Source: Eledone cirrhosa
Taxonomy: Eukaryota
DNA: 64,000 bases
Assembly (NCBI GenBank): GCA_964016885.1
Contig: OZ024743.1
Coordinates: 341,930,001-341,994,000, forward strand
Direction: 5' to 3'
The position numbers and the translations under genes were made by a program. The notes beneath the pieces were generated by a model, which made no database searches, was not told the DNA's origin, and worked only from the letters and a program-made list of their open reading frames with translations. Below, one piece after another: positions 10,298 to 62,145 of the stretch (position 1 is its first letter; each line of letters begins with the position of its first letter).

Positions 10298-11769
10298 GGT
10301 GAATCGCTGTAAGCGCTCTACTTGTGGAGGAACGTAGTATATAGTTTTGTATAATGGTAGCTATGGTGCTTCCATAGGCGATATGCCAAAATAAGCACTC
10401 GATATTCAGCAGAGTAGAGTGTAGATAGTACAAAGTAAACGAAAAATCAGTGATGCATCTGGACTTAATTTATTGCGTGTTACAATTGTTTCGCCGGCAG
10501 GTAGCGCGAGACATGGTCCTTGTATGCATCTGGAGGATTCTACTGCTGCAGGTTCTTTCAGACACGGGTATTTCGTTCGAAGCAAATTTTATCACTGGGG
10601 TGTTACCATCAAAAAACACCCTAAAAAAAACCTACTTCCACTCTTGTCATGCCATTGGGTGTTTTTACTCCACGTCATCACAAGTTCTGGTCAATATTTA
10701 CTGCCACACGGGTCATCAGCCATTTTCCGTCCGACACATTTCAATGTGCATATATATATATATATATATATATATATATATATATATATATATATATATA
10801 TATATATATATATGCATATATATATATGTAAATATATATATACATATATAGAAGGAAGCATAATAGTATATATATATATATATATATATACACCATGGCT
10901 GGTGCAGAAACGGAATCAAATATTCATTAAAAACAACTGAAGGCCGGAATGGAAAGTTTCTTTAGAATTTTAATGCCACTACACGGCGTGACGCAAGAAC
11001 AGTCAATTATTATTCATGCTTTAAACGCAATTTGCACGATTGTATAAAAACAATTGTTCAGATTTAAGGTGGATTTAAATTAAAAACCTTGTTCTTTTTT
11101 TGTTAGTTTGTTTTTTTCAGTATTACACATATATATATATATATATACATATGAATGGCATGAGTTCGTTCGGCGGGGCATATGTGTTGAATGGGTTGAT
11201 TTCGTGTATATATATATATATATACTATAAATATATATATATATATATATATATATATATATATATATATATATATATATATATATATATATATATATAT
11301 ATATATATATATATTTATGAATGTATGTATAGTATATTTGGTAATATACCGTATGTTTAATTAAAAACATTTTGAAGACCTTGCGATATCATTTTAAAAT
11401 AGTGACTATGTCACTTCTTTTTTCGGCAAAGGAAGTGAGAAAAGCTGACAGATTCTGTTTCACACTGTTGGTGTTTCTCAGAGCAACGTACACCACGACC
11501 TCTGCCGAAAATTATAGAGGCTGTATTCTTATAGAAATCCAGTAATAATCAGCAAAAATTAAAAATTAGGATTGGTGCTCTGAAATAGCGATGTATACAT
11601 GAATGTATGTATAGTATATTTGGTAATATACCGTATGTTTAATTAAAAACATTTTGAAGACTTTGCGCTATCATTTAAATTACCAAATATACTATACATA
11701 CATTCATTTATACATCGCTATTTCAGAGCACCGAACCTCATTTTTAATTTTAGCTGGACCGGCAATCGC

Positions 11770-11873
11770 TCTGTTTAATCAGTCTGTTTAATCAGTCTGT
11801 TTAATCATTCTGTTTAATCAGTCTGTTTAATCAGTCTGTTTAATCAGTCTGTTTAATCGCTCTGTTTAATCAG
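11770..11873. repeat. 13-bp minisatellite (TCTGTTTAATCAG) x8
   Basis: Seen directly inside the fold-back element. Confidence 0.95.
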
Positions 11874-11932
11874 TTCCTGAATTCTATAAGTATCCAACCT
11901 TTATAATTTTCGGCAGAGGTAGGGAGTACGTT

Positions 11933-11973
11933 GCTCCGAGGAACACCAACAGTGTGAAACAGAATCTGTCAGC
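11933..11973 (+). ncRNA. Type I HHR (inverted copy at 11444-11484)
   Basis: GCT-CCGAGGA-ACAC-CAACA-GTGT-GAAA-CAGAATCTG-TC-AGC. The other copy has core CTGAGAA, so the consensus is CTGAGGA. Confidence 0.72.
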
Positions 11974-12477
11974 TTCTCTCCCTTCTTTTGCCGAAAAAAG
12001 AAGTGACATAGTCACTACTTTAAAATGATAGCGCAAGGTTTTTTTAAATGTTTTCAATTAAACATACGGTATATTACCAAATATACTATACATACATTCA
12101 TGTATACATCGTTATTTTAGAGCACCAATCCTAATTTTTAATATATATATATACACGAAATCAACTCATTCATCAGATATGTACATATATATGGAAAATG
12201 TAGCTAGCAGCTGAAGTATTTGATAAAGTTATATCTGTATAAATACAGAGTGTGTAACCGAGCTTGAACCAATGAGCATAAGTATATTCAAGTATATAAT
12301 ATATACGCATGGAAATATGCCAGAAAAGGCGAGTATCTCTGTAAATTAAAACGAAATGATAAACATCTTTAATCGCCGTATAATTCTGGAGACAGTTATG
12401 TAGGCAAATAGATAGACAGAGAGATTGAATTATATGACAATAATTCCGATTGAAAGTGGAATGTCAATTATAAAGAT

Positions 12478-12664
12478 AATTGTTTCTACTTTAGGCACAA
12501 GGCCAGCAATTATCCAGTTCATTACTGGTACTTTATTTTATCGACCCCGTAAGGATGAAAGGCAAAGTCAACCTCGGCGGGATTTGAACTCAGATCGTAA
12601 AGGGACGTAACTATGCTGGAAAGCATGGCGTCCGACCCTCTACCGATACTGCCAATCCACCGCC
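12478..12664 (-). mobile_element. tRNA-derived SINE, full length
   Basis: A-box TGGCAGTATCGG, B-box GAGTTCAAATCC, conserved central domain, tail GGCCTTGTGCCTAAAGTAGAAACAATT. Confidence 0.9.
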
Positions 12665-59472: not shown

Positions 59473-59494
59473 ATATATATATATATATATATAT

Positions 59495-59990
59495 AATAAA
59501 ATACGTCCCTCATCAGTGATTTGCCGAAGATCATAGATATTTCATTGCATTAAAAACCATATATCTCACTTCGGTGCAATAATAACCAAAATAAGTTATT
59601 AGGACAATTAAAACGCGTAAAGCGAGTGAGACAGGAGAACAACAGAAAATATAGCATACCGTGGGAGAGAAACAAGCTTCAAAAATTATTCTGTTAGCGT
59701 AAGCTAGGTGAATATATGAGCGCTTAGAGAATAGTGCTAGCACGAACGAAGGCCATTGAGCAGAGAGAGAAAAAATAGCGTCCGTTAGTGCAGGATGAAA
59801 TGAAGAGAAGAGGGAGAAAAACAGTGAGTGAGTGAAAGTGTGAGGAAGAGTTAACGGACAAGACAGAGGGGGAGAAACAGAGAGAATGGGGGAACAGTAT
59901 ATCTATGATCTTCGGCAAATCACTGATGAGGGACGTATTTTATTACATGTTACCATGTGCTACCTGCAGTATTTTTCTCTATATTTTAAT
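59495..59990. repeat. (TA)n-flanked element with ~45-bp inverted repeats (59495-59540 / 59900-59945) containing CTGATGAG
   Basis: The inverted repeat is seen directly. The GAAA half of an HHR is not recognisable. Confidence 0.65.
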
Positions 59991-60560
59991 ATATATATAT
60001 ATATATATATATATATGCGCGTGTGTGTGCGCGTGAATAATGACACAAAAGAATGATACTATACATTGATAATAGATATTAGTTTAACGCGTGATACAGC
60101 AGAATATGTTTCCTAATGTTTAGGTCGACAGTCCTTTATCAGTAGGTAGAATGCAAGATAGAAGAAGAAATAGAAAGATAGACTAGAGTATAAAAAAGCG
60201 AAAGGAAAAATATTTACCAGAGGAATACATATGATTGGTTACGAAGCTATTTAGTGGAAAAGAAAGACGAAGAGAGAAGATGCGAAGAAATGATAAGAGG
60301 AAAGGAGAGAAAGAAAGGGTTCAGATTGAGAGGAGGAATCTTGGATAAAAGGATAAGAAATGAGTGTTGATAAAGGGAAAAGAAGCACCACCAGATATAA
60401 TATGTAAGTCGATTGATAAAATATATTGAAAGAATAAATAGAATTGTCAGCTAAGATAGCTTCTAGAGAATGAATGCTGTTTATGATGGTGATGATATAA
60501 AAGGTGATGAAGTGGGTGATATGAGTAAATACGTGATAATGGATAAATGTAATATATTAA

Positions 60561-60733
60561 GGCGGTGGGTTGGCAGTATTGGTAGAGCGAAAGACATTAT
60601 GTTTTGCAGCTTAGAGTTATGGCCCTTTACGTTCTGAGTCCAAATCCCGAATTTTATCCTTACAGGGTCGATAAAATCAATCACCAGTAATGCACTGTGG
60701 TAAGTGATGGCCATGTGCCACAACTAGAAACAA
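60561..60733 (+). mobile_element. tRNA-derived SINE
   Basis: GGCGGTGGGTTGGCAGTATTGG, GAGTCCAAATCC, GGGTCGATAAAATC, tail AGAAACAAT. Confidence 0.8.
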
Positions 60734-62145
60734 TAATACATTAGATGGGTGAATAGAAAATAAATAAACATAAATATGAATCGGATTGTACAAATAACAG
60801 ATGATGCCTTTACACCACCAATCTCCTCACCAACACCCACCTAGCCTACTTTATCATGGCTTACTAGCTCTATACGGACATTTAAATTGATTAAATTGAT
60901 AAAGATAACTTTCTCAAAGTTTCTTTTGACTATTACATTCTGATTATTTATTTTCTATTAATTTATATCATTAAACCCTTCTAATATACTTTATTTACTA
61001 ACAGCATTATCTCATATACCATCATCATAAACACCATAAACACCATAAACACCCTAAATTTCTCTGAGGCCTCCTTATGTGAAACTTCTATTTATTATTT
61101 GTAGTGGATTGGCAGTATCGGTAAAGCGTCGGACGCCATGCTCTGACGCATAGAGTGACAGCCTCTTCCATTCTGAGTTCAAATCCCGCTGAGGTTAACT
61201 TTGCCTTTCATCCCTACGGGGTCGATCAAATAATGTACCAGTAATGCACTGGGTAATTGCTGGACTTGTGCCATAAGCAGAAACAATTATTTGTAAATAT
61301 TTTTATTAATTGATTTACACATTATCTCTGGTGGCACTTCTTCATTCAACAGCTCTCACGCTCAACCCTTTATTCTAGATTTTACCACTCATTCTATCCC
61401 TTCCTCTCCCATATTTTCTCCTACTAATATTCACCGCGTCTTTTCTCCTCTTTCCCTTTATTTTTCCATTTCCCTTTTTCCCTTCATTTTTCTTATATCA
61501 TTTTTCTTTATTTCTTTGCTCCACTTCACTTTCCCTGTATTATTTCAAGACATACTCTTCATCATGTTTTCTTGTGATCCTTTCCCATATTTTCCCTAAG
61601 ACTGTTCACACCTCCCCTAAAACCCACTCCCACCACGGACAACCCCATCCCAAAAGCCCATCCCCAGACAACTTTCTCTACTGGGTCTTTCCCTAGTAAC
61701 ACGTCTCATCACGAGGTCGTAAAAAAGAGTATTATTAAACTCTACTGATGGGCTCCCTCAGCTTCAAGACACGCTATATATCCCGATGTCGCTAGCTAAG
61801 ACTTCATAGAATGATTCGGGTCCAAACATGGATAGAAACACATACATACATAAATACATATGTGTGTATGTATGTATGAATACATGTATTTATATATCAG
61901 AATGTCATAGTCTAAAGAAACTTCGAGAAAGTTGATGGTGATGAAGTATATTTCTTTTTCAATTTAATCAATTTAAATGTCCGTATAGAGCTAGTAAGCC
62001 ATGATAGAGTAGGCTAGGTGGGTGTAAGTGAGGAGATTGATCGTGTAAAGGCATCATCTGCTATTTGTACAATCCGATTCATATTTATGTTTTTTTTCTA
62101 TTACCTAATATCTACTCACCCATCTAATGTATTATTGTTTCTAGT
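60722..62145. repeat. ~180-bp inverted repeat (60722-60900 / 61958-62145)
   Basis: Diverged reverse-complement arms about 1 kb apart. Confidence 0.8.
61101..61288 (+). mobile_element. tRNA-derived SINE, full length
   Basis: A-box, B-box GAGTTCAAATCC, central domain and tail as in 12478-12664. Confidence 0.88.

Follow-up and report, generated by a model that had tools for sequence, protein, structure and literature searches.

Head-to-head palindromes and Hydra-clade Penelope-like elements in a 64-kb octopod locus: probable two-ended priming at (TA)n

How does a single stretch of octopod DNA come to hold so many palindromes, and from what kind of element are they made? We addressed this question in a 64,000-nt window of the Eledone cirrhosa genome (contig OZ024743.1, positions 341,930,001 to 341,994,000; the one window to which the term hotspot applies below), where a sequence-only reading had listed at least 13 palindromic insertions. 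Self-BLAST of the window recovered an inverted match at 13 of 13 places, numbered here by position: P1 (11309-11539/11879-12109), P2 (15935-16243/16521-16830), P3 (17251-19804/22500-25065), P4 (40291-40666), P5 (41846-42174/42343-42659), P6 (42733-43318), P7 (43577-43769/44183-44366), P8 (45823-46416), P9 (49279-49927/50772-51431), P10 (54730-55278/55466-56014), P11 (57579-58025/59026-59472), P12 (59491-59540/59899-59948), and P13 (60719-60944/61896-62149). Two further palindromes that had been overlooked lie at 44571-44731 (P7b) and 52207-52345/54168-54308 (P9b), and the 15 palindromic spans cover 36% of the window. A short-range scan returned 25 arm pairs (top score 450), compared to 2 arm pairs (top score 14) in a block-shuffled control of 20 windows. 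Non-simple 50-mers had a near-perfect inverted partner within 2 kb in 5.7% of cases, versus 0.44% reported genome-wide for O. bimaculoides, which marks the window as a hotspot, not as representative of the average genome. Arm-to-arm divergence ranged across loci from 0 to ~19-21%, and the arm differences, 125 transitions and 124 transversions over 6519 aligned nt, revealed neither an ADAR imprint (non-CpG A/G 40, C/T 63, in line with composition) nor CpG decay (22 of the 125 transitions; 17% expected).

Judged from their sequence, three elements in the window are Hydra-clade Penelope-like elements (PLEs), and the motifs in their three reading frames support the PLE origin that had been claimed for the palindromes. 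The left arm of P3 (17256-22501, minus strand) is a full-length element whose 3' end lies in (TA)18; it carries a 5' direct pLTR piece (22501-22328 plus its continuation), an RT-EN reading frame (about 22177-19731) with two frameshifts and the motifs RWR, DKT, YRDD, CxCX5C, YIG, CxxC, and CxH, a 2.5-kb 3' UTR, and hammerhead motifs at 17339-17302 and 22416-22379. Its right arm (22500-25148, plus strand) is an inverted 5'-truncated copy that starts within the last ORF codons, again includes the pLTR and a hammerhead (24977-25014), and ends in (TA)16 after a tail of 83-94 nt, from 25066, that matches 22327-22245. The arms differ by 0.9% substitutions and overlap by 2 nt at the join; P3 is the textbook layout of a full copy, an inverted 5'-truncated copy, and a tail. 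The second element (4849-10746, minus strand) is full-length with direct pLTRs only (4849-5172 = 10422-10746), and its 5' end runs straight onto (TA)70. The third, P11 (57502-59472), has a plus-strand right copy that opens with a Hydra-type endonuclease C-terminus (58032-58208), continuing for 1.4 kb to (TA)13, and a left copy of 447 nt followed by 77 extra nt up to (TA)43. Both ends lie in (TA)n in all three elements.

Upon tblastn with full-length relatives, the order RT then GIY-YIG endonuclease was found at 22177-19749 and 10297-7576, broken by frameshifts. DKT is present in both ORFs, where RWR replaces RWK (R and W are nearly invariant in 80 relatives), and the linker and flank motifs read CNCRRASGC/CNLC/CPH and CNCRAGTRC/CRLC/CRH in the two long ORFs and CNLC/CKH in P11. 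No CCHH was seen in the Hydra translations, as judged by eye. The canonical hammerhead occurs in three copies in P3 (score 13); none was found in the 4.8-10.7 kb element or in P11. Protein relatives numbered 1233, the best named ones being from the octopod Argonauta hians (42-46%), and neither a Pfam match to the five Hydra frames nor a solved structure related to the Hydra RT was found. These features agree with the Hydra clade as given in the available sections of Craig et al. (2021, PMC8557442): RT followed by GIY-YIG, DKT, RW[K/R], the CxCX5C linker, CxxC and CxH without CCHH, a canonical hammerhead, (TA)n insertion, and mollusc hosts. Two points differ: that text gives RWK where we see RWR, and describes elements generally under 3 kb, whereas the units here, with long 3' UTRs (2.5 kb), measure about 5.1 and 5.6 kb, within a 5-6 kb range.

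The remaining palindromes are mostly short and non-coding. P1 (11317-12142) belongs to family A (monomer about 310 nt, a partial tandem on each side), with hammerhead-like motifs at 11481-11447 (minus) and 11936-11970 (plus), a join near 11677, and a tail at 12105-12142 on the right arm only; P4 (40232-40693) is an old family A palindrome with arms 21% diverged. P2 (15937-16939; monomer about 490 nt) has a hammerhead at 16089-16019 (minus), a blunt join at 16523/16524, and a 106-nt tail confined to the right arm. Family B, whose monomer measures about 320 nt, comprises P5 (41849-42704; left partial tandem, hammerheads at 41996-41965 and 42319-42288 on the minus strand, join at 42343-42344, right arm alone with a tail, of 43 nt) and P8 (45783-46407; hammerhead at 46275-46306 on the plus strand, blunt join at 46117/46118, 40-nt tail on the left arm only). 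The near-perfect palindrome P6 (42784-43232) has a 12-nt loop (43028-43039) within its hammerhead (43034-43000, minus) and 54 extra nt on the left; P7 (43588-44451) has 190-nt arms, a 413-nt spacer, a hammerhead at 44261-44305 (plus), and 88 extra nt on the right ahead of (TA)61. P9 (48919-51428), a left partial tandem with a monomer of about 1.3 kb and both outer ends in (TA)n, carries hammerheads at 49038-48975 and 50351-50288 (minus), and its right inverted copy (50772-51428) stops 360 nt before the 3' end. The old palindrome P9b (52207-54308; 140-nt arms, 19% diverged) has a hammerhead at 54189-54216 (plus) and a decayed mirror hammerhead in its left arm. P10 (54738-56006) has 549-nt arms (3.1% diverged), a 187-nt spacer, and a variant hammerhead in both arms (54817-54779, minus; 55927-55965, plus), and its two arms run out into (TA)n at one and the same element base. 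P12 (59496-59988) consists of 50-nt arms around a purine-rich spacer, with 40 extra nt on the right ahead of (TA)14, and P13 (60719-62161) of 230-nt arms with a SINE (61104-61290) in the spacer, its right end in (TA)26 and its left end adjoining a SINE remnant.

Families A, B, and P2, as non-coding monomers of 310-490 nt with partial tandems and a type I hammerhead, resemble non-LTR retrozymes (~300-490 nt monomers, short tandems), which have been proposed to derive from the pLTRs of PLEs (Cervera and de la Pena, 2020, PMC7229834; bioRxiv 10.64898/2026.07.22.740005). Unlike those described there, the elements here are mostly 1-2 monomers in head-to-head pairs and their hammerheads are of the minimal type; the word "inverted" is absent from PMC7229834 and occurs in the bioRxiv text only in a reference title. 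Self-BLAST within the window gave no sequence match between the short families and the Hydra elements, and the short hammerhead-bearing elements, which have no homology tie to the Hydra ORF, were probably mobilized by the Hydra enzyme.

The hammerheads orient the arms. We counted a match as strong at a score of at least 9, which was never reached in 10 shuffles; early strict descriptors missed motifs with an extra base or a long stem II, and the counts come from a later, broader descriptor. All 14 strong hammerheads lie inside palindromes, on the minus strand in left arms and on the plus strand in right arms, so that the polarity proposed for most hammerhead-bearing cases holds at 9 of 9 loci (two-sided p = 0.004). 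An Rfam scan gave 86 matches, none at the gathering score and none to a hammerhead family; its miRNA matches reflect hairpins and TA/CA repeats. Eight of the 13 listed palindromes are oriented by a strong hammerhead, P1 by weaker ones in each of its arms (score 8, which 10 shuffles produced twice), P4 through homology to P1, and P11 by its reading-frame remnant, while for P12 (left copy minus) and P13 the orientation comes from base skew only. The head-to-head arrangement, which had been called the dominant outcome, was found in 11 of 13-15 marked insertions; the claim extends to one hotspot window, and it meets two single-armed counter-examples, the 4.8-10.7 kb element and a plus-strand 3' fragment at 3314-4845 (hammerhead-like motif at 4725-4752) flanked by (TA)121 and a short run of TA.

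We then considered the ends. At 11 of 13 loci a (TA)4+ run lies no more than 12 nt from at least one arm end (background 1.6%). Both ends reach (TA)n at 10 of 13, usually one of them through an extra piece of 33-106 nt, which in 4 of those 10 loci has no second copy to prove its origin from the element. The proposal that the 3' ends point outward into (TA)n is qualified by these counts and by P4 and P8, where neither end shows a (TA)4 run (the ends of P8 are AT-rich). Six of 12 extra 3' pieces tested are element sequence; those of P6, P7, P10, P11, P12, and P13 have no second copy in the window. In P1, P2, P3, P5, and P8 (5 of 6 checkable loci) one arm is longer at the 5' end and the other at the 3' end, so that copying of either arm from its partner is excluded; all of the right arm of P6 and of P9 is contained in the left. 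The same five loci carry the tail on one arm only (5 of 5; p = 0.03 at best). A tendency for the arm without the tail to be longer 5' held at 7 of 9 loci and was not significant. Arm ends are staggered by 33-360 nt, family B copies vary in size and join point, and the short and long ends of P5 and P8 recur at the same family B positions.

All six resolved 5'-5' joins lack target DNA between the copies and overlap by 0-2 nt, although one may instead hold a 5-nt insert; an overlap this small led us to reject joining driven by microhomology. When scored against another locus of the same family, the two arms of a locus shared variants in family B at 11 of the 13 sites that were informative (p = 2e-4, with one third expected) and in family A at 26 of 26 sites, indicating a single source for both arms.

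The shared variants, the near-blunt joins, and arms that are not contained in each other favor, for most loci, the two-ended priming at a cut (TA)n array that had been suggested, in preference to self-priming or a fold-back of DNA, and we regard it as the best explanation and a probable one. The Hydra GIY-YIG endonuclease would cut both strands of the array, and each cut end would prime reverse transcription at the element 3' region, with RNA of a single source locus as template; one end would start at a near site and the other at a far site, which would leave a tail on one arm only. Both cDNAs would stop early at different points and be joined 5' to 5' almost bluntly, yielding a palindrome of head-to-head copies whose 3' ends both lie in (TA)n; where a single end was primed, the 5' end would be attached to (TA)n directly, as at 3.3-4.8 and 4.8-10.7 kb. 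Cutting and extension of both strands and the two start sites are taken by analogy from the Poseidon element PAc of Anolis, which in vitro cuts both strands and extends them, and for which a dimer is predicted (available sections of Frangieh et al., 2024, PMC11167929); the assignment of both primings to a single event, and the way the join forms, we infer. PAc shares the AT-rich target, the tail-defining two start sites, and the both-strand extension, but it belongs to a different clade, shows no strand bias of the start site, and its join was not reconstituted. The one-tail rule is not predicted by that portion of the study, where the start sites do not differ between strands. Against two-ended priming stand the single window and the absence of observed intermediates, the symmetric ends of P10, the ends of P4 and P8, both without (TA)n, and gene conversion between arms, which could also give shared variants.

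A rather unlikely alternative is self-priming, in which, after a single priming, the RT or a host polymerase makes a U-turn by folding back, or primes on antisense RNA, as proposed for Adineta Penelopes as a model for head-to-head PLE copies (PMC3846280). It accounts equally well for the shared variants, and the 12-nt loop of P6, a 21-nt offset at the P8 join, and the contained right arms of P6 and P9 (42.8-43.2 and 48.9-51.4 kb) fit it. Its difficulty lies in the five loci whose arms each hold sequence absent from the other, in joins overlapping by 0-2 nt where Adineta has a 15-bp overlap, and in arm starts hundreds to thousands of nt apart in P2, P3, P5, P9, and P11.

Very unlikely is that two independent insertions entered one (TA)n array in opposite orientation and were later homogenized by gene conversion. 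Such arrays do take serial insertions, with tail-to-tail neighbors at 4845/4849 and 43206-43337, and, also in its favor, the P6 arms show 0 substitutions over 180 aligned nt; however, (TA)n is expected between the 5' ends and is missing from 6 of 6 resolved joins, polarity should be random and is the same at 9 of 9 loci, and the window's 8 SINE copies yield no mirrored joins.

Three TA-centered mirrors raise the slim chance of DNA snap-back repair at broken (TA)n without reverse transcription, for these three only: a 3' end would self-anneal in the TA run, copy 30-80 nt of flank, and rejoin. Around P1 (11153-12184), the flank at 11179-11206 is inverted at 12155-12184, beyond the (TA)n runs; around P2 (15819-17146), a flank of about 60 nt together with (GA)n is inverted at 17075-17146, ending in (TA)4; and P7b (44575-44731) has 80-nt arms around a short (TA) run. 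In all three, an inverted copy of the flank lies on the far side of a (TA) run and itself terminates in a further TA run, and neither hammerhead nor ORF is present; the three, P7b among them, may be fold-back scars. The outer mirrors, where one arm ends in TA and the other after 31 or 75 extra nt, also fit relic PLE-type mini-palindromes, and snap-back gives no account of the hammerhead polarity or tails of the main set. A 3' transduction as the source of the P1 and P2 outer mirrors is disfavored because the element position at which (TA)n begins is not the same in the two arms.

It is extremely improbable that the palindromes are MITEs or foldback DNA transposons with long TIRs and a TA target, since, despite TA flanks formally compatible with a TA target duplication (a fixed one would be masked inside (TA)n) and the symmetric ends of P10 and P7b, most loci have staggered ends, the arms contain hammerheads and partial tandems, Hydra reading frames occur in two palindromes, and one family yields palindromes of different size and join point. 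Pfam found no transposase or host domain in 103 other open frames (one weak match, E 0.005; weak evidence, as Pfam missed the Hydra RT too), and the suggested mimicry of such transposons, with transposase hallmarks lacking, is supported. A library or assembly fold-back artefact (amplification chimeras or read turn-arounds), which the 99-100% identical arms of P3, P6, and P11 might suggest, is scarcely credible, given arm divergence that spans 0-19% with mixed transitions and transversions, palindrome ends that coincide with element ends, a SINE in one spacer, and no mirroring at the SINEs or LINEs of the window, including 11 kb of LINE DNA (27.5-38.8 kb) without a local inverted match by self-BLAST.

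Earlier publications already describe head-to-head copies, tails, and (TA)n targeting. The head-to-head arrangement has been called the most frequent one in PLEs (PMC3846280) and is drawn in Fig. 2 of PMC8557442, whose available sections yielded no report of the frequency of inverted Hydra copies. The general PLE layout of partial tandem, inverted 5'-truncated copy, and one-end tail (PMC8557442 Fig. 2 and PMC3846280; PMC8969392; as far as these texts were available) is matched by P3 part for part and in miniature by P1, P2, P5, and P9, but here inverted arms reach 2.6 kb at very high density, tails measure 33-106 nt versus 30-40, and joins are near-blunt versus a 15-bp overlap. Added by this window are the variants shared by arms of one locus, the 0-2 nt joins, the non-contained arms, and the single tail. 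The origin of PLE tandem and inverted structures is stated to be unresolved in the available parts of PMC8557442 (section 15) and PMC11167929, the latter drawing no link there between two-strand extension and inverted copies. The window supplies numerous independent short events whose joins and ends can be measured, and at genome scale arm containment, the one-tail rule, and join overlap would separate two-ended priming from self-priming. Such palindromes would easily be mis-filed as MITE/TIR DNA transposons. Like a palindromic Harbinger repeat of Xenopus that is an ADAR substrate (Porath et al., 2017, PMC5625713), they would fold on themselves without an inverted neighbor; that repeat is a DNA transposon with measured editing, whereas the source here is a retroelement. 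It is a tentative possibility that priming of both ends by one PLE complex from two different start sites, with one arm tailed, is the rule, that palindromes are the main outcome for octopod Hydra elements and their short hammerhead passengers, and that they are the main source of the exceptional potential for long dsRNA and of the A-to-I hyper-editing that have been reported in octopus; short of that, the palindromes are candidates for one origin of the unusually high octopod dsRNA potential.

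Self-comparison of the window recovered all 13 inverted pairs of the sequence-only reading (P1–P13, at 11.3-12.1, 15.8-17.1, 17.3-25.2, 40.2-40.7, 41.9-42.7, 42.8-43.2, 43.6-44.4, 45.8-46.4, 49.3-51.4, 54.7-56.0, 57.6-59.5, 59.5-59.9, and 60.7-62.1 kb) and revealed two further palindromes, P7b (44571-44731) and P9b (52207-54308); the 15 spans total 23.1 kb (36% of the window). A short-range scan returned 25 arm pairs; 20 shuffled windows together gave 2, both weak. Arms diverged by 0-19% (125 transitions and 124 transversions in 6519 aligned nt), and CpG was not in excess among the differences of all pairs (22/125 transitions vs 17% expected), as expected if palindromic repeats are unmethylated. 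Self-comparison found no local inverted match in 11 kb of LINE DNA (27.5-38.8 kb), a nested non-LTR retrotransposon block (27500-38800) with RVT_1 and zf-RVT matches and direct duplications (27529-29962/31035-33483 and 29961-31034/36577-37642). Mirrored joins were also absent from a SINE family represented eight times, by copies or fragments (7096, 12466, 26494, 27415, 35084, 60561, 61104, and 62256). Two small hairpins with 19-nt arms lie at 51856-51930 (37-nt loop), beginning right at a (TA)16 run, and 62654-62701 (10-nt loop). A GC-rich imperfect repeat at 14495-14850 adjoins (GAA)30, and its minus-strand open frame of a repeated motif had no Pfam match.

The 17.3-25.2 kb unit (P3) carries a minus-strand reading frame with a reverse transcriptase (RT) followed by a GIY-YIG domain and two frameshifts; among 1233 relatives of this RT, the named ones that match best come from Argonauta hians (42-46% identity), which makes an octopod host likely. 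Since the motifs DKT, RWR, CxCX5C, CxxC, and CxH, present in the frames of the window's Hydra elements, are described for the Hydra clade of Penelope-like elements (PLEs), along with hammerheads and insertion into (TA)n (available text of PMC8557442), we assign the unit to that clade. A second Hydra element occupies 4849-10746, an endonuclease C-terminus lies inside P11 (58032-58208, plus strand), and a remnant lies at 63.6-63.75 kb. In the P3 frame, an (AAT)n tract (20480-20540) encodes a run of Asn between RT and endonuclease, resembling the N-rich inserts of Adineta Penelopes (accessible part of PMC3846280), and the linker of the 4.8-10.7 kb element holds a long low-complexity insert (8337-9014). 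Palindromes other than the Hydra-bearing ones are non-coding; P1/P4 (family A), P2, and P5/P8 (family B) consist of 310-490-nt monomers in partial tandem, a build like that of non-LTR retrozymes (portions of PMC7229834 and preprint 10.64898/2026.07.22.740005). From common target, polarity, and tails, rather than homology, we infer that the Hydra enzyme mobilises these short elements. The family A monomer's 13-nt unit has grown to 8 copies in the right half of P1 (11770-11874), and a diverged relative of the P6 family (43206-43420) lies tail-to-tail with P6, the (TA)n between them receiving both 3' ends.

A hammerhead descriptor gave 19 matches in the window, 14 of them scoring ≥9, which none of 10 shuffles attained. 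Each of these 14 falls inside a palindrome, minus in left arms and plus in right arms, and the polarity proposed for hammerhead-bearing palindromes thus held at 9/9 marked loci (p=0.004). Two of the five lower-scoring matches form a mirrored pair in P1 and three fall outside palindromes (4725, 25503, and 26804). Hammerhead, homology, or ORF orients 11 of the 13 palindromes this way; P12 and P13 are oriented from base skew only. Hammerheads at 54779-54817, 55927-55965, and 11936-11970 carry a U4-to-C core change (CCGAAGA), identical in both P10 arms. Several hammerheads have a self-complementary stem III, which suits dimer formation. In 11/13 palindromes, a (TA)4+ run lies no more than 12 nt from at least one arm end (background 1.6%). 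The claim that 3' ends point into (TA)n stood for both ends in 10/13, once an extra piece (sequence beyond the other arm's 3' end) is allowed on one side, but P4 and P8 have (TA)4+ at neither end. Inverted repeats beyond the (TA)n runs flank P1 (11153-11206/12155-12184, ~30 nt) and P2 (15819-15876/17089-17146, ~60 nt), their copies each terminating at a further TA run. P7b consists of nothing but a mirror with TA at its centre. All three could have arisen by snap-back repair where (TA)n broke, or could be relics of mini-palindromes.

Both arms of a palindrome share one source, as informative sites in four-way comparisons grouped by locus (11/13 in family B; 26/26 in family A). The 5'-5' joins with both templates present overlapped by 0-2 nt without target DNA between the 5' ends (6/6; one with a possible 5-nt insert). 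Arm ends are staggered: among 12 extra pieces tested, six recur elsewhere as element continuation (P1, 38 nt; P2, 106; P3, 83; P5, 43; P8, 40; P9, 360) and six have no second copy in the window, and two family B loci have their short and long ends at matching positions. In P1, P2, P3, P5, and P8 the arms overreach each other, one on the 5' side and the other on the 3' side, indicating that neither was copied from the other and that they started separately on RNA. A one-tail rule held at 5/5 verified loci (p=0.03 if starts are independent and equally used), P10 being a possible exception. With locus-shared variants, near-blunt joins, and five loci where neither arm was copied from the other, we prefer the proposal that both ends of a cut (TA)n prime reverse transcription, which probably produced most of the palindromes. 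In the accessible text of PMC11167929, a Penelope protein cleaves AT-rich DNA on both strands and extends both, from two start sites bounding the tail and without strand bias of start site; we found no discussion of inverted copies there. Self-priming, with RT making a U-turn along the first strand, appears unlikely: P6 and P9, whose right arm is contained in the left, also fit it, but the arms of the five loci each need their own RNA start. Head-to-head copies have been explained in print by self-priming on an antisense template, on the basis of palindromic join overlaps (available part of PMC3846280), which are missing in the window. Varied arm ages and confinement to one element class argue against a fold-back artefact, which the three near-perfect cases (P3, P6, and P11), taken singly, would still fit.

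Palindromy was counted among insertions marked independently of it, by hammerhead or Hydra ORF. Its description as the dominant outcome holds in the window (11/13-15 marked insertions) but does not extend genome-wide, since the window is a hotspot. Clear non-palindromic insertions are 3314-4845 and 4849-10746, whose 5' ends join straight to long (TA)n; two doubtful hammerhead matches belong to direct tandems at 25.2-27.0 kb, and one marked insertion reaches the window end. Unmarked single arms, such as the purine-rich 60.0-60.5 kb, would lower the share. The (TA)n-bounded partial tandems at 25170-26247 and 26315-26988, the second carrying an inserted SINE, are possibly single-armed non-autonomous elements.

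As RNA, eight palindromes are predicted to fold with 54-92% of bases paired. Using a re-implemented Porath measure (11990 sampled 50-mers; near-perfect inverted partner within 2 kb), 7.0% of 50-mers had a partner, or 5.7% once simple repeats are excluded (2.0% in the same-strand control), and 680/686 non-simple matches fell inside the 15 spans. The portion of PMC5625713 available gives 0.44% for O. bimaculoides, called exceptional, and heavy editing of Penelope in lizard, and names no source of octopus dsRNA potential that we found. Arm differences (6519 aligned nt) show no A/G excess, so that a contribution of the palindromes to octopus dsRNA is no more than a hypothesis.

The palindromes are real, PLE-derived, and of known kind, their head-to-head architecture being already known. 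In the largely open-access literature covered, we found nothing on octopus Penelope palindromes or on non-autonomous Hydra-clade elements at TA microsatellites, and, among the papers listed, no explicit model of two-ended priming; 'palindrom', 'hammerhead', and 'Hydra' are absent from the main text, as available, of an annotation of Octopus vulgaris repeats published in 2026 (PMC13282606). The window is of value for its many clean small events, through which a question that the PLE literature leaves open can be tested, and for a possible link of the palindromes to octopus dsRNA.
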